The notes: generated by a model not told the origin, from the sequence alone. Shown: positions 1-29,174, numbered from the stretch's first letter. The stretch: DNA of 64,000 bases from Sphaerochaetaceae bacterium (GCA_045598675.1 JAZLMO010000074.1:1819-65818); one strand, 5' to 3'. Program-made: numbers and translations.

Positions 1-1176
1 GATGTAGGGAAAGAGACATTAAGATCCTTATCCAGGGAAATATCAAGTCAAATTAAACCACCTTGTTGGTATCAAATAGAAGAAAAGATTTCATCAGAGG
101 GAAAAACATTTATTGAAGTTGAGTTTTCGGGAATGGATATGCCATATTCTGCTTTTGGAAGATATTATGAACGTTTTGCAGATGAAGATCGACTGTTGAA
201 TAATACTGAACTTGAACGGCTTTTCTTAAATAGACAACGTGATTATTCTGCATGGGAAAATACAGATTCTGAAGACAATTTGGACTCTGTTGATTCTTCT
301 TTGTTAAGAATTGAGTATGACAAAGGTCTTGAAGAGAAGAGAATTCACAGTCCATTTGTTGATAATAAAACAGCTTTAAGCAAATTAGGTTTACTATCAC
401 CCAGCAAAAATACTCTTAATAATGCAGGAAAGGTACTGTTTTCATCTCAAAAGCCAGTTACTGTAAAATTAGCAGTGTTTGCAACGGAGACAAAGTCTAC
501 ATTTTTAAAGCTTGAACACTTTCAGGGGAATGTGTATGAGTGTATCGAGGCTTCTATCAATCACATTTTTCAAAACATAGAATGGAATATTTCTTTTGAT
601 GGAAGCATAAAGCGTAACGAAGAGCCAGAGATTCCAAGGATTGCAATACGAGAAATAATTGTAAATGCCTTTGCTCATGGTTGTTACTTTGGTAATACAG
701 ATTTTGAAATTGATGTATTCAAAGATAGGGTTTCAATTTATAGTCCTGGACTTTTCCCATTAGGAATTTCTCCTGATGATTTCGCTAAAAAAGCACATGA
801 GCCTTTGGTAAGGAATCCAAAGATTATTAATGCACTTTTTATTACTGCTGAAATTGAATCTTTTGGGACTGGGTTTGAGAAGACATTTAGTGTCTGCAAT
901 GAGCAGGGAGTAAAATATCACTATGAAAACTCCATGAGCGGATTTAGGTTTATTTTTTACAGACCTCATGGACAAAAAAATGTCCATAAAATGTCCATGA
1001 TAGAAAAACAAATTTTCTCTCTGTTAGAGGAAGATGGAACGCTTACATTTGAAAAGATCAGTGCTAAGATTGGAAAAAGTGTAAAAACTGTTTATAGAGC
1101 GGTTAAATTATTAAAAGACCAAAACTACATTAAAAGAATTGGAAGTGAAAAAGATGGTTATTGGGAGGTACTATAA
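1..1176 (+). CDS. COG2865-type putative DNA-binding ATPase (AlbA_2/Schlafen-like + HATPase_c_4-like + C-terminal winged helix), 5'-truncated by the window edge
   Basis: Frame 1 is open from base 1 (DVGKETLRSL...GKTFIEVEFSG precedes the tracked Met at 133). It has an AlbA_2-like segment (GRYYERFADEDR), a central REIIVNAFAHGCY segment and a C-terminal HTH (ISAKIGKSVKTVYRAVKLLKDQNYIKRIG). Confidence 0.7.
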   Translation, partial: DVGKETLRSLSREISSQIKPPCWYQIEEKISSEGKTFIEVEFSGMDMPYSAFGRYYERFADEDRLLNNTELERLFLNRQRDYSAWENTDSEDNLDSVDSSLLRIEYDKGLEEKRIHSPFVDNKTALSKLGLLSPSKNTLNNAGKVLFSSQKPVTVKLAVFATETKSTFLKLEHFQGNVYECIEASINHIFQNIEWNISFDGSIKRNEEPEIPRIAIREIIVNAFAHGCYFGNTDFEIDVFKDRVSIYSPGLFPLGISPDDFAKKAHEPLVRNPKIINALFITAEIESFGTGFEKTFSVCNEQGVKYHYENSMSGFRFIFYRPHGQKNVHKMSMIEKQIFSLLEEDGTLTFEKISAKIGKSVKTVYRAVKLLKDQNYIKRIGSEKDGYWEVL

Positions 1177-11944: not shown

Positions 11945-13672
11945 ATGGATATTGCAGAGAAAGATTCAAAACTGAAAATATTCTTCACTTACGTAAGACC
12001 CTATAAGTGGGCTTTTATTCTTGATATGTTTCTCTCCGTTGTAATATCGGTTGTAGATTTGGTTTTTCCGTATGTTTCCAGGTGGTCAATGAACACGCTT
12101 TTGCCTCAGGGATTGTTCAGAACATTTTTTGCTGTCATGGGTATAATGTTTGTTTCATACATCATCAGAGCCGTGCTTCAATACTTTGTCACAATAGTCG
12201 GTCACTTTATGGGTACAAGAGTTGAAGCTGATATGAGAAAAGATGTTTTTTCACATATGCAGGGGCTTTCTTTCAGTTTTTTCGACAAGAACAGAACAGG
12301 TGTTTTGCTGAGTCATGTTACAAACGATCTTTTTGAAATAGTTGAGCTTGCCCATCATGGTCCGGAACACCTTATTACATGTTCGCTGACTATCGTGGGT
12401 TCTCTTATTATTCTTGCTACAATCAACTGGAAACTCACTTTGGTTTTGGCTGTTCTTCTTCCTGTCTGCATTGTTTTTTCCTTAAGACAGAGAGTCAGGA
12501 TGACGTCTGCAAACAGAGAGGTTAAGAGAAAGACCGGTGAGATCAACGCGGCCATAGAAAGCGGGATTTCCGGTATTCGTACTTCCAAGGCTTTTGCAAA
12601 CGAGAAGGCTGAAGAAGATAAGTTTCAGATAGTAAATAATCAGTTTAAAAACACTAAAAAATATTTCTACAGAGCCATGGGTCTTTTCAACTGCGGAATT
12701 GAGGCAACAATAGGTATTGCACAGGTTGCAGTTGTTACCGTCGGTGGCTATTTTATTATGAAGGGTTCTATGGATTTCATAGATCTTGTTACATTTACCC
12801 TTTATATTTCCGCGTTTGTTTCTCCTATCAGAAAGTTGGCTCAGTTCATGGAACTGTACAGTCAGGGTTCAAGCGGGTTTGAAAGGTTTGTAAACATAAT
12901 GAAGACCAAACCGGAGATTACTGACTCTCCGGATGCCTATAATCTTGATAAAGTGGACGGTTCAATCAGTTTTGATCATGTTTCATTTTCTTACGGTAAC
13001 GGCAGGAAAGTTCTTGATGATGTCTGTCTTGATATCAGAAAGGGTGAAAAGATTGCGCTTGTAGGTCCTTCAGGTGAAGGTAAGACTACAATGTGCAGTC
13101 TGATACTGAGGTTCTATGATGTCAGTTCGGGTTCAATTTTATTGGACGGAAGAGACATCAGATCAATTAGGCAATCCTGTCTCAGAAGCAACATAGGTAT
13201 CATTCAGCAGGATGTGTTCCTTTATGCCGGTACTGTTATGGAAAACATCCGTTTCGGGAAACCGGATTGTTCGGACGAAGAAGTTGTGAATGCTGCAAAA
13301 CTTGCCGGTATCCATGATGAGATCATGCAGATGCCTGATGGATACAATACAAATGTCGGAGAGCGGGGTGTGTCTCTTTCCGGCGGTCAGAAACAGAGAA
13401 TTTCCATTGCAAGAGTCTTGCTCAAAAATCCTTCTGTGCTTATCCTTGATGAGGCTACTTCTGCATTGGACAGCATTACGGAAGCAAACATTCAGGAAAG
13501 CTTTGATATGCTTTCCAAGGGGAAAACCTGCATTATGATTGCCCATAGACTTTCCACTGTTAAGAATGCTGACAGAATTGCAGTTATTGAGAACGGGAAA
13601 ATTGCTGAACTCGGTACACGTGAAGAGCTTTTGAAGCTTAATGGAAAATACGCAGCTTTGGAGAGAAAATGA
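11945..13672 (+). CDS. ABC exporter, fused permease/ATPase (MsbA/multidrug type)
   Basis: Six-TM N-terminal half, Walker A GPSGEGKTT, signature LSGGQKQRISIAR, Walker B ILDEATSALD. ATG at 11945 is preferred over the tracked 11882, which overlaps galM. Confidence 0.9.
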   Translation: MDIAEKDSKLKIFFTYVRPYKWAFILDMFLSVVISVVDLVFPYVSRWSMNTLLPQGLFRTFFAVMGIMFVSYIIRAVLQYFVTIVGHFMGTRVEADMRKDVFSHMQGLSFSFFDKNRTGVLLSHVTNDLFEIVELAHHGPEHLITCSLTIVGSLIILATINWKLTLVLAVLLPVCIVFSLRQRVRMTSANREVKRKTGEINAAIESGISGIRTSKAFANEKAEEDKFQIVNNQFKNTKKYFYRAMGLFNCGIEATIGIAQVAVVTVGGYFIMKGSMDFIDLVTFTLYISAFVSPIRKLAQFMELYSQGSSGFERFVNIMKTKPEITDSPDAYNLDKVDGSISFDHVSFSYGNGRKVLDDVCLDIRKGEKIALVGPSGEGKTTMCSLILRFYDVSSGSILLDGRDIRSIRQSCLRSNIGIIQQDVFLYAGTVMENIRFGKPDCSDEEVVNAAKLAGIHDEIMQMPDGYNTNVGERGVSLSGGQKQRISIARVLLKNPSVLILDEATSALDSITEANIQESFDMLSKGKTCIMIAHRLSTVKNADRIAVIENGKIAELGTREELLKLNGKYAALERK

Positions 13673-13896
13673 TGAACATTCATGAACAGGTTGAATTACA
13701 GGATTGTCCGCTTTGTCACGGTCCGGCTTTACTGGAAGAAGAAAACGGTTGGTGCTTTTATGTTATGTGTCTGGACTGCGGTTGTCATACTGCAGAAGCC
13801 GCATATAAGACAGAAGAGGATCGCCTGGATGCTGCGCAAAAAGCAGCACATCTGTGGAATATCGGAAAGGTTCTTCCGAGTAATCCCGGGGAGTGA
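13669..13896 (+). CDS. Small zinc-ribbon protein, Lar (restriction alleviation)-like
   Basis: CPLCHG...x20...CLDCGCH four-Cys ribbon followed by AAxLWN, resembling the Lar family. The start overlaps the ABC stop (ATGA) and its stop overlaps the next GTG start. Confidence 0.5.
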   Translation: MMNIHEQVELQDCPLCHGPALLEEENGWCFYVMCLDCGCHTAEAAYKTEEDRLDAAQKAAHLWNIGKVLPSNPGE

Positions 13897-15056
13897 TTTT
13901 GAAGAATTGGATTTGTCCTTTCATAGGGCAGTGCGGCGGCTGCTCAAATCTCAAACCTTATGATGTACAGCTTTCTGATAAGCAAGCTTTGATAGAAGAC
14001 TTGCTTTCTTACTATGGAAAAGTTTGGCCTATCATAGGTGCTGAAAAACCTTTCTATTACCGCAATAAGGTCAATTGGGAATTCTCATGCGACAGACAAG
14101 GTAAACAGTTTGACGGTATATATGCAAAGGACAGTCATTACATTATTCCGGTTGGCAACTGTATGCTTCACGACAAGTCTGCCCAGAGTATAATCAACGA
14201 TGTTGCTTCCTATTTCAGAAAGGAAAACATTCCTTTTTACAACGAGGATTCAAGAGAGGGTTTTCTCCGTCATGTTCTTGTCAGAAGAAGTCCTCTGACA
14301 GATCAGAGTATGGTTTGTCTTGTTACCGGTTTCTGGAAGTTTCCTCACAAAGATTCATTTATAAGTTTTATTACTGAAAAACATCCTGATGTTGTTTCAA
14401 TTATTCAGAACAGAAACAAAGAAAAGACTTCAATGATTTTTTCCGACGAGGAAGACCGTATTCTTTTCGGTAACGGTTACATTGAAGACTATATGTGCAA
14501 CTTGAAATTCAGAATCAGCGGCAGGAGTTTTTCTCAGGTAAATCCATATCAGGCTTCAGAGCTGTATTCTGTTGCAATGGATATGGCTGATTTCAGGGGA
14601 AATGAGAAGGTCATTGATGCTTACTGCGGTACAGGAACAATAGGTCTTATTGCTTCCGATAACGGAGCAGGTGAGGTTATCGGTGTCGAGAGCAATCAGA
14701 GTGCAGTTTCCGATGCAATTGTGAATGCTAAGCTGAACGGTATTACAAATGCCCGTTTTATCTGTGCTGAAGCTTCTTCTTATCTTAAGCAAATGGCCAG
14801 GGATAAGCAGAATGTTGATGTAGTCTTTTTAGATCCTCCCAGAAACGGTACGGATGAACGTTTTCTGTCTTCTGTTTTTAAGCTTAATCCTAAGAAAATA
14901 ATATACATTTCATGTAATCCTTTTACCTTAAACAGGGATTTGCGATACATAGTACATTTCTCAGATTACAAAGTTCGTGCCATCCAACCTGTAGACATGT
15001 TTCCTCAAACCTCTCACCTTGAGACTGTCGTTATGATGTCAAGGATAGGTAACTAA
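13893..15056 (+). CDS. 23S rRNA (uracil-C5)-methyltransferase, RumA/RlmCD (TrmA) family, without N-terminal TRAM domain
   Basis: Fe-S Cys cluster CPFIGQCGGC, SAM motif DAYCGTGTIGL, catalytic region DPPRNG...YISCNP. GTG start. Confidence 0.85.
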   Translation: MILKNWICPFIGQCGGCSNLKPYDVQLSDKQALIEDLLSYYGKVWPIIGAEKPFYYRNKVNWEFSCDRQGKQFDGIYAKDSHYIIPVGNCMLHDKSAQSIINDVASYFRKENIPFYNEDSREGFLRHVLVRRSPLTDQSMVCLVTGFWKFPHKDSFISFITEKHPDVVSIIQNRNKEKTSMIFSDEEDRILFGNGYIEDYMCNLKFRISGRSFSQVNPYQASELYSVAMDMADFRGNEKVIDAYCGTGTIGLIASDNGAGEVIGVESNQSAVSDAIVNAKLNGITNARFICAEASSYLKQMARDKQNVDVVFLDPPRNGTDERFLSSVFKLNPKKIIYISCNPFTLNRDLRYIVHFSDYKVRAIQPVDMFPQTSHLETVVMMSRIGN

Positions 15057-15111
15057 CCACTACCGTATTTCTTTTACAGTAAAGAATTAACTCAATATTT
15101 CGTTGCTGAAC

Positions 15112-15259
15112 ATTGTGTAAATTTTTAACAGCTATTTTCTCTTTGTGGGTAGAAGTCCAAGTTCTCAGATTGGGGACTGTGTTTGTAGCGATGATGTTTT
15201 GAGGTACTGTGCTTGTAGAAATGATGTCAGAGCATAGGGGAGTTTGTAGAAACAATGTC
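15112..15259 (+). repeat. Left array: 4-5 direct copies of a 16-17 bp motif (TTTGTrGrwA..ATGTC), phased 30-40 bp apart
   Basis: Copies read directly: ATTGTGTAAATTTTTAAC 15112 (degenerate), TTTGTGGGTAGAAGTC 15142-15157, TTTGTAGCGATGATGTT 15182-15198, CTTGTAGAAATGATGTC 15212-15228, TTTGTAGAAACAATGTC 15243-15259. Copies 3 and 4 share an ACTGTG prefix (about a 30-bp tandem unit). Confidence 0.85.
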
Positions 15260-15390
15260 AATTGTTTCTTAGTAGTTAAGATATTTAAGTGTTTTACTTG
15301 ATTTTTTTTCAACTTAAAAAATAAATGAAATGTTATCTGCTTTCTTTTGTATTACTTATGTACTATCATTTCAATACATGTGGAGGATGT

Positions 15391-16323
15391 ATGTCTGTAT
15401 TTGAAAAGCATGAATTAATAAAAAAAAGTCTGTTTTCAAGTCACAAAAATGAGAATTTCTTAATAGAAGTTGAGAATATTCTTGCTGAATATGAAGACCA
15501 TTTTGAAGATGTTCCAAAAAAACTAATGACTGAACTTGTAACCAAATATAAGGTTGATTTTCCAAAAAAGTTTAAAAATGAAACTAAAACGTTAGTTCGT
15601 AGATACTGGAAAAGTATTTTGGGTGATATGAAATCAACTAAATCCGAAGAAAAGCAGATTGAATGTCTTGTTTCTTTGTTGTCAGTTACAGAAGAGGATG
15701 CTCATACCATTGTTTTTGAAGAGAAAAGTGCGGTTGTAAATGCATTTGTACAAGATCTCCTTTCAGATAGAAGATATTCTCCAGAAGATGAAGAAAGATT
15801 AAATCAGTTAGCTAACGATTTAAATGTTTCTTTGGATTTTAAGGATAAACAGAATTTAGAGAAATTTAGAATTCTATGGGACATTGAGAATGGAAATCTT
15901 CCAGTTGTGAATGATACCGATATCACGATTCAAAAGTCTGAAAATGTTTACTTTAAAGATGAGACAAACTGGTATGAAGATCGTCAAACTACAACGCGAG
16001 TATCCTATAGCGGACCATCGGTAAGGATTAAGATTTGTAAAGGTGTATATTACAGGATAGGCTCATGTTCACCTAAAAAAGTCACAACAACAGAAAAAAA
16101 ATTAATTGATACCGGTACTTTGTATTTGACAAATAAACGATTAATATTTGTCGGCTCTAAATCAACAAAAACAATATATTTGAATAAGATTTTAAGTATT
16201 GAACCATACGTTGATGGAGTTGAAATAGTCAAAGAAAGTGGAAAATTTCCACTTTTGAAATTCAGTAGTGGTGATGCTGAAGTCTTTTCGTTGTTACTGA
16301 CCAAAATTGTGAATATGGAGTAA
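15391..16323 (+). CDS. Hypothetical protein: helical N-terminal region + C-terminal PH/GRAM-like (bacterial PH) domain
   Basis: ATG at 15391 is preceded by GGAGGA. The tracked start at 15325 is a likely over-extension. The C-terminus (GTLYLTNKRLIFVGSKSTKTIYLNKILSIEPYVDGVEIV) has the classic bPH/GRAM pattern. No enzymatic motif was recognised. Very AT-rich. Confidence 0.6.
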   Translation: MSVFEKHELIKKSLFSSHKNENFLIEVENILAEYEDHFEDVPKKLMTELVTKYKVDFPKKFKNETKTLVRRYWKSILGDMKSTKSEEKQIECLVSLLSVTEEDAHTIVFEEKSAVVNAFVQDLLSDRRYSPEDEERLNQLANDLNVSLDFKDKQNLEKFRILWDIENGNLPVVNDTDITIQKSENVYFKDETNWYEDRQTTTRVSYSGPSVRIKICKGVYYRIGSCSPKKVTTTEKKLIDTGTLYLTNKRLIFVGSKSTKTIYLNKILSIEPYVDGVEIVKESGKFPLLKFSSGDAEVFSLLLTKIVNME

Positions 16324-16327
16324 AAAA

Positions 16328-17053
16328 GTGAGGAAAAGGCTTTTTGAAATAATTGAGACCTCAAATGGAGACGATAAAGCAAGTTCTATTTACGATGTCT
16401 TTGTAATCTTAACAATTATTTTCAGTATTATTCCTTTAGCATTTAAAAACACAAATAGGTTTTTAGTAATTGTTGACAGAATAACAGTAATCATTTTTAT
16501 TGTTGATTATGTTTTACGCCTCATTACTGCGGATTTAAAACTGAAAAAAGGAGTAATATCCTTCTTTATTTATCCGTTTTCAATAATGGCAATAATTGAT
16601 TTATTTAGTATTCTGCCGTCATTTTGTGTTATTTCATCCAGTTATAAATTGTTAAGATTGTTAAGAATGTTTAGAGCCTTTAGAGTTCTGAGAGCTGCTA
16701 AAATGCTCAGGTATTCTAAGAATTTTTTAATTATTTCTGATGTAATAAAAGTGCAACGCAAATCATTAAGTGCAGTGTGTATGTTAGCTGTAGCTTATAT
16801 ATTTGTTTCTGCATTGCTTATTTTTAATATTGAGCCAGAAAGTTTTGAAAGTTTTTTTGATGCGATCTACTGGGCAACTGTCAGTCTTACCACAGTTGGT
16901 TATGGAGATATATATCCAATAACTACTGCGGGAAGAGTAATTACAATGATTTCATCTATTTTTGGTATAGCAATTATTGCCCTTCCTGCCGGTATTATCA
17001 CCGCTGGGTATATGAATAGAATAAATCAAGATACCAATGAAAAAGAAGAATGA
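16328..17053 (+). CDS. Voltage-gated-type K+ channel (6-TM, S4 arginine ladder, TVGYGD filter), no cytosolic regulatory domain
   Basis: S4 segment LLRLLRMFRAFRVLRAAKMLR has R/K every third residue. The selectivity filter is TTVGYGD. GTG start 5 nt after the upstream stop. Confidence 0.85.
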   Translation: MRKRLFEIIETSNGDDKASSIYDVFVILTIIFSIIPLAFKNTNRFLVIVDRITVIIFIVDYVLRLITADLKLKKGVISFFIYPFSIMAIIDLFSILPSFCVISSSYKLLRLLRMFRAFRVLRAAKMLRYSKNFLIISDVIKVQRKSLSAVCMLAVAYIFVSALLIFNIEPESFESFFDAIYWATVSLTTVGYGDIYPITTAGRVITMISSIFGIAIIALPAGIITAGYMNRINQDTNEKEE

Positions 17054-17082
17054 TTCAATAATCAAGCAAGGATAACAATAGC

Positions 17083-18096
17083 ATGAATAAGCAACTTCAA
17101 ATCAGAAACAGTACGGTAGATTTTCTCATGTTTACACGTGATGCCAAAGATGACGGTATTGAAGTCAGAGTTCAGGACAATGATGTTTGGCTAACTCAAA
17201 TGGCTATCTCCAAATTATTTGATGTGGACAGAAGTGTTGTCACAAAGCATCTGAAGAATGTTTTTGAGACAGGAGAGCTGGATGTAAATTCAGTATGTGC
17301 AAATTTTGCACAAACTGCTGATGATGGGAAAACTTACAATTATAAGTTCTATTCTCTTGATGCCATTATTGCCGTTGGTTATAGAGTAAATTCCGTCAGA
17401 GCTACTCAGTTCAGACAGTGGGCAACCAAAGTTTTGTCTACATTCAGCAAACAGGGTTATGTCCTGGATAAGAACCGTCTTGAAAACGGACAGATATTTG
17501 ATGAAGAGTATTTTGATCATCTTATTTCTGAAATTCAGGAAATAAGAGCAAGTGAGAGAAGATTCTACCAGAAGATAACAGATATCTATTCAACAGCTGT
17601 AGATTACTCGGTTGACAGTGTTATTACACAGAATTTCTTTGCAACGGTTCAGAATAAGATGCATTATGCAGTTCACGGAAACACTGCTGCGGAAATGATT
17701 GTTCAGAGAGCTGACCATAAGAAAACAAATATGGGTTTAACTTCATGGAAGAATGCACCGAACGGAAAGATTGTTAAAGCGGATGTTTCTGTTGCTAAAA
17801 ACTATCTTTCTCATGATGAAATGTCTGAACTTAACGAAATAGTTACAATGTATCTTGATTATGCAACCCGACAGGCAAAGCGTCATATTCCTATGACAAT
17901 GGCTGACTGGGCAGAAAAACTTGATGCATTTCTGAAGTTCAATGATGCAGAAGTATTACAGGACAAGGGAAAGGTTACTGCTGAAATAGCCAAGGCTTTT
18001 GCAGAAAGTGAATTTGAAAAGTATAGGGTAATTCAGGATGCCTCTTATCAGAGTGATTTTGACCGTTTGATTTCTGAGACACAGTCTGAGAAATAA
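17083..18096 (+). CDS. RhuM family virulence/DNA-binding protein
   Basis: Near-canonical RhuM sequence blocks: IRNSTVDFLMFT..., YNYKFYSLDAIIAVGYRVNSVRATQFRQWAT, IRASERRFYQKITDIY and KMHYAVHGNTAAE. Confidence 0.85.
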   Translation: MNKQLQIRNSTVDFLMFTRDAKDDGIEVRVQDNDVWLTQMAISKLFDVDRSVVTKHLKNVFETGELDVNSVCANFAQTADDGKTYNYKFYSLDAIIAVGYRVNSVRATQFRQWATKVLSTFSKQGYVLDKNRLENGQIFDEEYFDHLISEIQEIRASERRFYQKITDIYSTAVDYSVDSVITQNFFATVQNKMHYAVHGNTAAEMIVQRADHKKTNMGLTSWKNAPNGKIVKADVSVAKNYLSHDEMSELNEIVTMYLDYATRQAKRHIPMTMADWAEKLDAFLKFNDAEVLQDKGKVTAEIAKAFAESEFEKYRVIQDASYQSDFDRLISETQSEK

Positions 18097-18105
18097 GAAT
18101 GGTTT

Positions 18106-18220
18106 GACTTCTATCCTCAGACGGACTAGGAATCTTTGACATTTACCCACAAACAGACTTACTCTGTTTAAGACATCATTCCTGCAAACTCAAGGCATAT
18201 TGAGACGTGTGTTCTACTCG
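18106..18220 (-). repeat. Right array: 4 copies of the same 16-17 bp motif, inverted relative to the left array, phased 32-34 bp apart
   Basis: Minus-strand reads: GTCTGAGGATAGAAGTC (18122-18106), TTTGTGGGTAAATGTC (18153-18138), TTTGCAGGAATGATGTC (18188-18172), CGAGTAGAACACACGTC (18220-18204, degenerate). The 18153-18138 copy plus flank matches the 15144-15161 copy at 15 of 18 positions. Confidence 0.8.
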
Positions 18221-18271
18221 TTAGGGAGTCATATCGAGAGTATATAGAAAAAAACTGTTAATGAGGAAAAA

Positions 18272-18640
18272 ATGAAATATAAAGGCACACTTATAGTGGT
18301 GAAAAACTGTAAACAGTCCCTTGAGTTTTACGAAAAAGTTCTTGGACTTGAACTTGTTCATGATAATGACGGTAACATGGAATTGAGCGGAGGTGTGTTT
18401 CTGCAAGAAACTCAGTATTGGGAAAAGTTTATCGGAAAAGACATTATCGGGTATAGCAACAGTACAGAACTGTATTTTGAGGAACCTGATATTGAAGCGT
18501 TTATTGCAAAACTGGAAAAACTTTATCCGGATACGGAATATGTGAACAAACTTATGACTCATTCCTGGGGTCAGAAAGCAGTCAGGTTCTATGATCTGGA
18601 TGGAAATCTTATTGAAGTAGGTACGCCGGTTAGGGGTTGA
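18272..18640 (+). CDS. VOC (glyoxalase/bleomycin-resistance/dioxygenase) family protein
   Basis: 122 aa with two beta-alpha-beta-beta-beta-like halves and the typical ending VRFYDLDGNLIEVG. Confidence 0.7.
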   Translation: MKYKGTLIVVKNCKQSLEFYEKVLGLELVHDNDGNMELSGGVFLQETQYWEKFIGKDIIGYSNSTELYFEEPDIEAFIAKLEKLYPDTEYVNKLMTHSWGQKAVRFYDLDGNLIEVGTPVRG

Positions 18641-28337: not shown

Positions 28338-29174
28338 TCAGACAGTTTCTGCTGAAAGCGGAGTTTCCAACAAACTGGGATTTGCCAGATATGTTTTGAA
28401 TTTTGCAAAAGCCTTTGCAAAGTACTTTCCGTCGCAGATTCGCTCATCCATAACTATTCCAAGGGGAAGACATGTTTTGTGAACAATTTCATTCTTTTCC
28501 CGGAAAGGAACTTCACGCATATTACCCATTGTTATGAACACACTTGTGGTTCCGAAGTCGTATATGTGGTGATAAATATGGTTTGTTCTTATGGAAGCGA
28601 GGTTGGAAATAAACAGACTTGTATGAAACGGACTTAACTCAATGATTTTCTTCGGAAGCATACCGATGCGGTCCATAAAACGGAACAGCTTTACTCCGAT
28701 TCTCAGCAAACCCGGTGTATTTATCAGAAATCTTGCCATCTTATCAGTATTGTTTGTACTTGTGATTTTGCTTTCCTGATTGATACGTTCTCTTAACTTG
28801 CGGTCAACATCAAAGATTGTGTCATTGTAATCAAGTTTTACCTTAATGGTTGTACTGTCGTTATCATCTACACTGCCGCGTAATACTACCATGGAAATAT
28901 AGAAACCTTTACGGTCGTAAACTTTTTTATTGGAAATAAACCTGTTGAGTTTGGGGAACAGGGCACATATTCTGAGATATGCGGTGATTAAAACAGCCAT
29001 ATGGCTGATTGCAAGATTTTCTCTTCTGTTCTTACTGATGTATTTCTTTATGGGATCTTCAGGAACATCAATAGTAATCATGTTCATTGAGTCATGTCTG
29101 TTTACCATAAGATGTGGGATTACTGCATATAACAAATCGACATCTTTTGCTCTTTTCCCGTCACTTCTAGCCAT
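28338..29174 (-). CDS. Stand-alone 2-oxoacid dehydrogenase E2 / CAT-fold acyltransferase-like protein
   Basis: The C-terminal block LPLGIVMDERICDGKYFAKAFAKFKTYLANPSLL aligns by eye to the E2 catalytic motif (DHRxxDG...F...le.P), but with Glu at the catalytic His position. Confidence 0.55.
   Translation of the reverse strand: MARSDGKRAKDVDLLYAVIPHLMVNRHDSMNMITIDVPEDPIKKYISKNRRENLAISHMAVLITAYLRICALFPKLNRFISNKKVYDRKGFYISMVVLRGSVDDNDSTTIKVKLDYNDTIFDVDRKLRERINQESKITSTNNTDKMARFLINTPGLLRIGVKLFRFMDRIGMLPKKIIELSPFHTSLFISNLASIRTNHIYHHIYDFGTTSVFITMGNMREVPFREKNEIVHKTCLPLGIVMDERICDGKYFAKAFAKFKTYLANPSLLETPLSAETV

Follow-up and report, generated by a model that had tools for sequence, protein, structure and literature searches.

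An AT-rich segment of three genes, set between two inverted, phased arrays of one short motif directly behind a ribosomal RNA (rRNA) methyltransferase gene, raises the question of what kind of element it is and what the arrays do. The segment lies in a 64,000-nucleotide stretch from a Sphaerochaetaceae bacterium (GCA_045598675.1, JAZLMO010000074.1:1819-65818), referred to here as the window; all positions are coordinates of the whole 64-kb window. The methyltransferase gene is rlmCD, also called rumA, and the three genes behind it encode a rare protein (gene 1), a potassium channel, and a RhuM-family protein. A first-pass annotation, made from the sequence alone, had noted the arrays and had read them as the ends of a non-autonomous DDE transposon of the Tn7/Mu/Tn402/Tn552 type. 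The observation is largely right, and so is the idea of a non-autonomous mobile element, but the DDE-transposon reading is wrong: positions 15017 to 18197 (3.18 kb) are a recombinase-less integrative cassette, inserted at a CA dinucleotide in the His codon of ...DMFPQTSH/LET... at the 3′ end of rlmCD. The cassette appears to be of a known kind, the rumA-targeting serine-type integrative element, here reduced to a form without a recombinase; its unusual feature is the pair of conserved half-site arrays inside its ends.

Insertion into the 3′ end of rlmCD

The sites at the two junctions are given below, with B and B′ denoting the host arms and P and P′ the cassette arms of the attachment (att) sites. 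Motif scores are from a position weight matrix (PWM) described in the next section, and loci on other contigs are cited by handles such as L175.

13893-15056, plus strand: rlmCD/rumA, 23S rRNA U-C5 methyltransferase gene; Pfam and NCBIfam rumA matches
14994-15014, plus strand: B half-site of attL, GACATGTTTCCTCAAACCTCT, codons DMFPQTS; 14.3 bits with the PWM, for which it was not a training copy, and unit comparison
15015-15016, no strand: CA exchange dinucleotide of the left junction (attL), His codon CAC; host-specific sequence before it, cassette-specific after it
15017-15040, plus strand: P′ half-site, CCTTGAGACTGTCGTTATGATGTC, left terminal imperfect inverted repeat; 18/24 complementary to 18172-18195
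15041-15141, no strand: left-arm spacer, holding the stop codon of the rebuilt rlmCD; identity to L175 at about neutral level
18172-18195, plus strand: P half-site (unit e), GACATCATTCCTGCAAACTCAAGG, right terminal imperfect inverted repeat; conserved in the L090, L091, and L177-L180 lineage, with dyad symmetry
18196-18197, no strand: CA exchange dinucleotide of the right junction (attR); identity between elements stops exactly there
18198-18261, plus strand: displaced old rlmCD 3′ end (B′ arm), matched by the C-terminus profile
18272-18640, plus strand: VOC/glyoxalase gene, the native downstream neighbor, outside the cassette; a 70% identical VOC gene follows the rlmCD remnant in L177

A profile built from 115 RlmCD C termini, which read ...VDMFPQTSH(I/V/L)ET(C/V)VLL..., was compared with all six-frame fragments of the window. 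The gene itself ranked first, the fragment at 18172-18261 came second with E = 2.4e-4, and the next match had E = 0.43. The remnant is preceded by a stop codon and reads DIIPANSRHIETCVLLVRESYREYIEKNC-stop; its displaced rlmCD end contains HIETCVLL, and its B′ arm is in frame with a P arm that mimics DMFPQTSH. A displaced rlmCD tail is thus found 3.1 kb downstream of the intact gene and in direct orientation, and therefore the segment between them is an insertion into the rlmCD 3′ end.

On the left, the host part of the gene runs to ...CCTCTCA (15016) and the cassette begins with CCTTGAG (15017), 13 codons ahead of the rlmCD stop; these last 13 codons (15017-15056, LETVVMMSRIGN-stop) are cassette-derived and homologous to the P′ arm of L175, a circular relative. 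The left arm of the window aligns with that of L175 from the junction through the innermost left motif unit (L4), and no further. Taken together, the boundaries between host and cassette sequence and the comparison with relatives confine the exchange to the CA present at both junctions, which sets the cassette at 15017-18197. Since the P′ arm encodes a substitute tail (the 13 codons here, LECVVMMSKDK-stop in L175), rlmCD stays whole. The cassette ends read CCTTGAG...CTCAAGG, not TG...CA, and CA is the only duplication at the true junctions, with no 5-bp target duplication.

A contig scan with RlmCD gave a best match of 54% identity (Spirochaetaceae) and yielded no close relatives, arrays, or empty site, and searches for exact-protein records of the window RhuM and RlmCD found none.

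Motif arrays inside both ends

The motif copies, and a hairpin that overlaps one of them, are as follows.

15142-15157, plus strand: left unit L1, 16-nt type, TTTGTGGGTAGAAGTC; repeat search, PWM, and unit comparison
15182-15198, plus strand: left unit L2, 17-nt type; consensus pattern and PWM, conserved in L175
15212-15228, plus strand: left unit L3, CTTGTAGAAATGATGTC; consensus pattern, PWM, and L175 alignment
15243-15259, plus strand: left unit L4, inner limit of the conserved left arm; consensus pattern and PWM
15248-15269, plus strand: 9-bp-stem hairpin overlapping L4; marginal, not conserved
18106-18121, minus strand: right unit a, plus-strand sequence GACTTCTATCCTCAGAC; PWM and relatives' alignment
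18138-18153, minus strand: right unit d, plus-strand sequence GACATTTACCCACAAAC; PWM and relatives' alignment
18172-18188, minus strand: third right copy, within the P half-site (unit e); PWM, untrained

The left copies lie between rlmCD and cargo gene 1 at spacings of 40, 30, and 31 bp, and the right copies occupy the 100 bp 3′ of the RhuM stop at spacings of 32 and 34 bp. All units point at the crossover and are 29-34 bp apart (about three helical turns), except for the 40-bp interval between L1 and L2. Most of the copies listed in the first-pass annotation hold up, namely those at 15142, 15182, 15212, and 15243 on the left and the minus-strand copies at 18106, 18138, and 18172 on the right. 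Two do not: the one placed at 15112 falls below the top 30 PWM matches, and there is no motif copy at 18204, where the sequence is the ...ETCVLL... portion of the displaced rlmCD 3′ end. The match of 15 in 18 positions reported between the sequence from 15144 and the reverse complement of that from 18151 is correct, and a repeat search extends over 24 nt at 83%. The hairpin also exists (−8.9 kcal/mol, z = −1.94), but it is marginal and is not conserved in the L175 left arm. The cassette is AT-rich, as had been supposed, with a GC content of 0.275-0.33 over 15200-16999 compared to 0.36-0.45 in the flanks; the pair formed by gene 1 and the channel gene has a G+C content of about 29-30%.

A consensus pattern matched six times in the 64-kb window (1.42 expected), a count reached in 0 of 100 shuffles, and four of the six matches fall inside the arrays. 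With a two-block PWM trained on six copies, all six were among the top seven matches of the window, and the copy at 18172, which was outside the training set, scored 16.2 bits; the null expectation is 3.35 matches of at least 14 bits per window (128 kb). The seventh match, at 28543-28559 (19.4 bits), is isolated and lies within a coding region, and we judged it to be a chance match because it sits inside a gene and has no neighboring copies. The arrays were not separable from background by autocorrelation at periods of 18-45 bp, and Tandem Repeats Finder did not detect them.

Related elements keep the arms and exchange the cargo

RhuM proteins that are 93-99% identical to that of the window occur on other contigs in at least five other contexts. 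We compared the contigs with RhuM at 94-98% protein identity: L090, L091, L175/L176 (from SRR15660237 and ERZ28612948), and L177-L180. The same right arm follows RhuM in all of these, and the RhuM stop lies 10 bp ahead of unit a in every case. There are five right-arm units in L090 and L091, four in L175, three in the window, which has lost units b and c of L090/L091 by deletion, and two in L177. The half-site after the array is GACATCATTYCTGCAAACTCAAGSCA in the L090, L091, and L177-L180 lineage and a diverged e′ half-site, GACATCGTTTCTACTGGCTCGTGGCA, in L175/L176. Right after ...GGCA the alignment between elements collapses, and beyond it the rlmCD tails differ each time (VETVVLLETY-stop, VETVVCLINQNAQAKHYVNIGIDVEDYYKIKDSENN-stop, VETVVLMSRKDS-stop, VETVVLLSDKL...), with five different tails at one and the same junction. 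Up to the CA, L175 and L176 agree at 100%; beyond it they are unrelated. In L177 the rlmCD tail is followed by the VOC gene listed above. The relatives are on gut or rumen metagenome contigs and the window is from a spirochaete-like genome; the element has moved between hosts. Between the kept arms the cargo is swapped: gene 1 and the K+ channel in the window, type I restriction-modification (R-M) genes and an ATPase in L175, and other genes in L090, L091, and L178.

The smallest members, the RhuM-only cassettes of L177-L180, consist of just P′, a promoter-like block, RhuM, unit a, and the P arm, and they follow in tandem on another cassette, which has a P-like arm of its own. At L177:600-800, the cassette in front carries an ICMT-like methyltransferase gene, and its right end, GATATCAACTCCCTAACAACTGGCAAACA/TG, is another mimic of DMFPQT..H. 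In L178/L179, the same RhuM cassette is preceded by another gene (HTH_24), and the junction falls elsewhere. The gene after the rlmCD remnant in L091 (L091:4493-5821) joins an N-terminal Schlafen AlbA_2 domain to the same C-terminal domains as those of the first open reading frame (ORF) of the window (133-1176, HATPase_c_4 and HTH_24).

Viral contigs were scanned for patterns of a motif pair, of units d and e, and of the attP core, and all matches were either unrelated repeats in coding sequence or due to chance. Neither arm had a blastn match among GenBank phages or PLSDB plasmids.

A circular relative and the reconstructed attP

L175 (Logan SRR15660237, 6235 bp) assembles as a 6.2-kb circle, since its end repeats its first 27 nt. 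It has both arms, with left units at about 131-251 and right units, and four genes, none of which is a recombinase gene: hsdM and hsdS of a type I R-M system without hsdR, an AAA_15/AAA_21 ATPase gene (these three at L175:348-5034), and RhuM; the ATPase-RhuM pair is also present in L090. L175 contains an intact 50-bp palindromic attP, GACATCGTTTCTACTGGCTCGTGG-CA-CCTTGAGTGCGTAGTAATGATGTC. Rebuilding the attP of the window from both ends gives GACATCATTCCTGCAAACTCAAGG-CA-CCTTGAGACTGTCGTTATGATGTC, likewise an imperfect palindrome of 50 bp. Dyad symmetry is 18/24 for the window (computed) and 17/24 for L175 (counted by hand), and the binomial P for at least 17 of 24 matches is about 7e-6. The general form of such an attP is GACATCNTT...CTCAAGG-CA-CCTTGAG...ATGATGTC. 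With the same arms around other cargos, different rlmCD tails, and a recombinase-less circular contig, the earlier suggestion of a non-autonomous mobile element with subterminal repeats is borne out.

The units resemble the att half-sites

Written toward the crossover, the right-arm units read GAYWTYTAYCCNCANACGGAC and the left-arm units L2-L4 read (G/A)ACATCATTTCTACAAAC; the P half-site reads GACATCATTTCTGCAAAC-TCAAGG, the P′ half-site GACATCAT...CTCAAGG, and the B arm of rlmCD itself GACATGTTTCCTCAAAC. In frame, the right units give FDFYPQTD (unit a) and LTFTHKQT, to be compared with VDMFPQTS, and the left units give GTVFVAMMF (L2) and GTVLVEMMS (L3), to be compared with ETVVMMS. This comparison of sequences shows that each array consists of degenerate copies, in tandem, of the outer ~17-22 bp of an attP half-site: the right-arm units copy the P arm, a mimic of the DMFPQT codons, and the left-arm units copy the P′ arm, with its ETVVMMS codons. 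L3, a copy of the ETVVMMS arm, is the best conserved unit, with 0.95 identity to L175 over 15204-15223. The P half-site is a noncoding mimic of DMFPQTS, and the B half-site is similar to the motif as oriented in the right array. That the units copy half-sites mimicking DMFPQT codons accounts for the PWM score of 14.3 bits at positions 14994-15009, within the codons of rlmCD.

The units do not fit integron attC core sites (RYYYAAC/GTTRRRY). Readings as DnaA boxes or iterons were dropped after the junctions were found.

Constraint on the arms

The RhuM genes of these elements have 0.87-0.92 DNA identity and 0.61-0.76 identity at four-fold degenerate sites. Such low values at four-fold sites, within a clade of 94-98% protein identity, imply very strong purifying selection on RhuM. 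The adjacent noncoding right arm has 0.90-0.92 identity among the window, L090, and L091. Identities between the left arms of the window and L175 are as follows.

P′ arm, including the P′ half-site: 0.75-0.80
100-bp spacer: 0.40-0.60
L2-L3 block: 0.70-0.95
beyond L4, where similarity collapses at ~15260: 0.25-0.45

The arms persist through changes of cargo and evolve more slowly than the neighboring synonymous sites; from this we infer that they are cis-acting, and the pattern of identities points to purifying selection on them.

Class of recombinase and known systems

As the first-pass annotation had stated, the cassette lacks a recombinase or transposase: none was found in any ORF of at least 150 amino acids (aa) in the 64-kb window. 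Pfam scans for an element-encoded large serine recombinase found none in the window, L090, L091, or L175-L180, and tblastn with the serine recombinases of L082, a locus described below, found none in these loci or in L003. The signature of a serine recombinase is a 2-bp exchange identity, 24-bp imperfect inverted ends that form a 50-bp attP, partial similarity of P/P′ to B/B′, and a strict coding target, whereas tyrosine recombinases require an identical overlap of 6-8 bp. All four serine-type features are present here, in the CA, the 24-bp ends, the arm similarity, and the one conserved coding target in diverse hosts, and they argue for an enzyme of the serine class.

Several elements with such enzymes are known. 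The single serine integrases of streptococcal integrative and conjugative elements (ICEs) target rumA, with direct repeats of 2-21 bp (PMC4701971), and the vanG/ICE-r elements insert at a 2-bp GA in the 11th-last rumA codon, have 28-30-bp imperfect inverted repeats, and give in-frame fusions and tandem copies (PMC4120198). The cassette resembles these rumA-targeting elements, which include streptococcal and clostridial ICEs, in its use of the last dozen or so codons, its 2-bp repeat, the 24-30-bp imperfect terminal inverted repeats, the in-frame substitute gene tail, and the tandem insertions. It differs in its size (1.3-6 kb compared to 45 kb or more), in an exchange at the CA of a His codon, which precedes the published GA (of GAG) by 5 nt, in the phased half-site arrays inside both ends, which have not been described for those elements, and in having no recombinase gene; with no large serine recombinase, it is not an autonomous member of the group. 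The same rlmCD hotspot is occupied by an autonomous element in the relative L082 (GCA_045615505.1, RlmCD 80% identical), where a 561-aa large serine recombinase with Resolvase and Recombinase domains (phrog_95 integrase) lies 23 bp after the stop of a rebuilt rlmCD with the tail VVLLCKGGKTMV-stop (L082:11096-13546). A 184-aa resolvase follows it on the opposite strand.

There is also a parallel at another rRNA methyltransferase gene. Recombinase-less defense cassettes at rlmH that resemble the staphylococcal cassette chromosome (SCC) are excised and circularized by the CcrAB/CcrC serine recombinases (PMC11470126). Like these SCC-like and pseudo-SCC cassettes at rlmH (orfX), and like cis-mobilizable elements (CIMEs), the present cassette is small, has att sites on both flanks, sits at an rRNA methyltransferase 3′ end, carries defense genes but no serine recombinase of its own, occurs in tandems and circles, and is inserted in different hosts. 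Unlike the SCC-like cassettes, it targets rlmCD instead of rlmH and has other hosts, and its mobilization in trans is a suggestion from sequence; SCC ends also have no subterminal repeat arrays. Arrays at the ends are a feature of the IS607 family, whose serine transposase assembles on multiple subterminal repeats and exchanges 2 bp (PMC6188088). The cassette shares the serine-type 2-bp exchange and the multiple subterminal repeats, which in IS607 are proposed to load several recombinase dimers per end. IS607, however, encodes TnpA itself, lacks terminal inverted repeats, and is hardly specific in its target (GG), whereas the cassette has a strict rlmCD target, a palindromic attP, a gene-tail mimic, and no tnpA.

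Proposed mechanism and alternatives

The reading that we favor, and consider fairly probable, is that of a non-autonomous rlmCD-tail cassette that moves by serine-type exchange with an enzyme provided in trans, its units being copies of att half-sites that serve as accessory binding sites. The cassette would be a hitchhiker. A serine recombinase acting in trans would recombine its attP with the CA of the rlmCD tail, by conservative site-specific recombination across these 2 bp, with which the His codon begins in ...DMFPQTSH followed by (L/V/I)ET.... The left end would bring the substitute tail, and the original tail would stay as a decaying remnant at the right junction. Since no recombinase is encoded, a helper at another place in the genome, or an element residing in tandem with the cassette, would have to provide the enzyme. 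The arrays would load extra recombinase subunits or an accessory protein on each arm, aiding synapsis or control, and arms loaded in this way may help a cassette without a recombinase to compete for, or to control, the helper enzyme. A stronger form of this proposal is that the arrays are genuine accessory serine-recombinase sites, making a complex attP of ~400 bp, and that they let small defense cassettes capture or regulate a helper integrase and build up arrays of cassettes on the rlmCD tail; this we put forward tentatively, and it seems to us rather doubtful.

It is unlikely that RhuM itself is the DNA-binding mobility factor of the cassette, and the earlier idea of RhuM binding to the arrays is not supported. 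A metagenome scan with RhuM gave 80 loci at 79-84% identity, none of them with arrays or rlmCD remnants, and for this reason we regard RhuM as cargo rather than as a recombinase.

Several observations weigh against the serine-type reading. To our knowledge, large serine recombinases do not require sites beyond ~50 bp. No cognate recombinase was seen at any of the arm-carrying loci, and the probable enzyme class is read solely from the geometry of the junctions. The L082 enzyme is probably a cousin and not the cognate one, because its distal half-site differs from that of the window. The current gene tail of the window is closer than the remnant to the tails of the nearest relatives, and the circularity of L175 is deduced from an assembly overlap, for which a tandem repeat would give the same picture. 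The remaining points concern the arrays. The right arm has between 2 and 5 units, a variation that arises by deletion between repeats; left units are missing from the minimal cassettes of L177-L180, so that the arrays are not needed for persistence; and the right-arm spacers are as conserved as the units, which fits any whole-arm function and not specifically the binding of units.

These last points also favor the view that the arrays have no role in mobility, being tandem duplications or fossils of half-sites, or else regulatory sequences, such as a RhuM terminator or untranslated region, operators of the cargo, or sites for the Bro-N-like N terminus of RhuM. The constant distance from the RhuM stop to unit a and the position of the left array upstream of the cargo promoter region also count in its favor. 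We nevertheless think this view unlikely. A neutral fossil is excluded for the right arm, as this noncoding sequence is far more conserved than the synonymous sites of the adjacent gene. In both arms the units are oriented toward the crossover and mirror the att half-sites, and the same left units stand before unrelated cargo (gene 1 here, hsdM in L175); the 80 RhuM genes mentioned above have no such arrays, and the arms match no Rfam family.

Less likely still is a heterobivalent tyrosine integrase of the lambda type, for which the arrays would be the arm-type sites of a ~400-bp attP and the palindrome its core. Direct repeats within each arm that are inverted between arms are the classical layout of the attP of lambda, P22, and L5, and the present attP with its arms would be of this size and layout; the conservation of arms around variable cargo fits as well. 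In a tyrosine system the recombination partners would share 6-8 bp, but here they share only CA, both in L175 compared to L176 and in attL compared to attR of the window. The units resemble the core half-sites, with no separate arm-type consensus, and are 16-22 bp long at a spacing of 30 bp instead of being ~10-bp sites. No integrase gene adjoins any arm, and the published rumA-specific enzymes are serine integrases (PMC4701971, PMC4120198).

The Tn7/Mu/Tn402-type DDE transposon, with the two TGTGGG copies as its ends and the arrays as TnsB/MuA/TniA sites, is very improbable, although several ~20-bp repeats inside each end, inverted between ends (here four left and three right units of 16-22 bp), are indeed typical of such transposons: the true junctions (15016/15017 and 18197/18198) lie outside the TGTGGG copies, by 125 bp on the left and by 44 bp on the right, the sequences CTCTT and AACAG at these copies show by eye no 5-bp duplication, the termini and the CA-only duplication described above disagree with it, the gene tail is both replaced and duplicated, and the 6.2-kb circle has no transposase. 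An ORF with rve and Mu-transpos_C_2 domains, 2 kb upstream of RhuM in L090, was considered as a cognate transposase and rejected; it encodes a truncated IstA of the IS21 type, lies next to part of an IS3 element, and has no counterpart in the window, L091, or L175-L180.

Should the conserved half-site arrays indeed bind recombinase, large serine recombinases would gain a novel accessory layer; these enzymes are popular in genome engineering precisely since their sites count as simple. The exact junctions, the reconstructed attP/attB pair, and the candidate circular form are all open to direct tests. The finding extends the staphylococcal picture of SCC at rlmH, in which recombinase-less defense cassettes ride on serine recombinases, to a second rRNA methyltransferase gene, rlmCD/rumA.

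Cargo genes and other loci

The three cargo genes of the window are the following.

15391-16323, plus strand: cargo gene 1, rare 310-aa protein; family of 36 proteins
16328-17053, plus strand: cargo gene 2, K+ channel (Ion_trans, TVGYGD); paired with gene 1 in other genomes
17083-18096, plus strand: RhuM-family gene, PADLOC candidate defense family PDC-S05; always abuts the right arm in this element lineage

Remote relatives of gene 1 have TerB/PF16940 matches, and its C-terminal part has weak GRAM/PH-like matches. Gene 1 and a small K+ channel gene are also paired at L083:657-2608 and L084:643-2631, where a small Ada_Zn_binding protein accompanies them and both RhuM and arrays are absent. The pair is a separate two-gene module, which may have a membrane-acting defense or stress function that has gone unrecognized. 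Within the channel gene, positions 16895-17005 have a weak Rfam match to the eukaryotic K-channel RNA editing signal (25.9 bits, with a gathering threshold of 51), which is almost certainly due to conserved pore-coding sequence.

RhuM is extremely conserved, with >7000 relatives. Proteins 79-85% identical to that of the window are encoded on metagenome contigs, some of them labeled by source as Clostridia, Lachnospiraceae, Oscillospiraceae, or Veillonellales. No relative in the PDB was found by sequence, and the AlphaFold2 model (pLDDT 51) was too poor for a fold search.

At the other end of rlmCD, a 75-aa Lar-like (restriction alleviation) ORF at 13669-13896 overlaps the start of the gene, a position that is kept in relatives at 80-93% identity (L081, L082, and L085).

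A distant locus has a comparable organization. In L003:11100-19000, from an uncultured Haloplasmataceae metagenome-assembled genome (CAWGPU010000005.1), rlmCD is followed by a distant RhuM (45% identical) and an IS4-like DDE transposase; no recombinase was found among its ORFs of at least 90 aa. Behind these lie several modules of DMFPQT-like units in direct and inverted orientation, at 15352, 15392, about 15580 (minus), 15945, 18820, and 18880 (minus), with a second copy of a gene end reading VVLLVRK-stop at 15880-15906, and the modules separate mini-cassettes with helix-turn-helix and RelB/ParE (toxin-antitoxin) genes. The L003 locus looks like a cassette array anchored on rlmCD, and it hints that such an rlmCD-tail cassette architecture is widespread.

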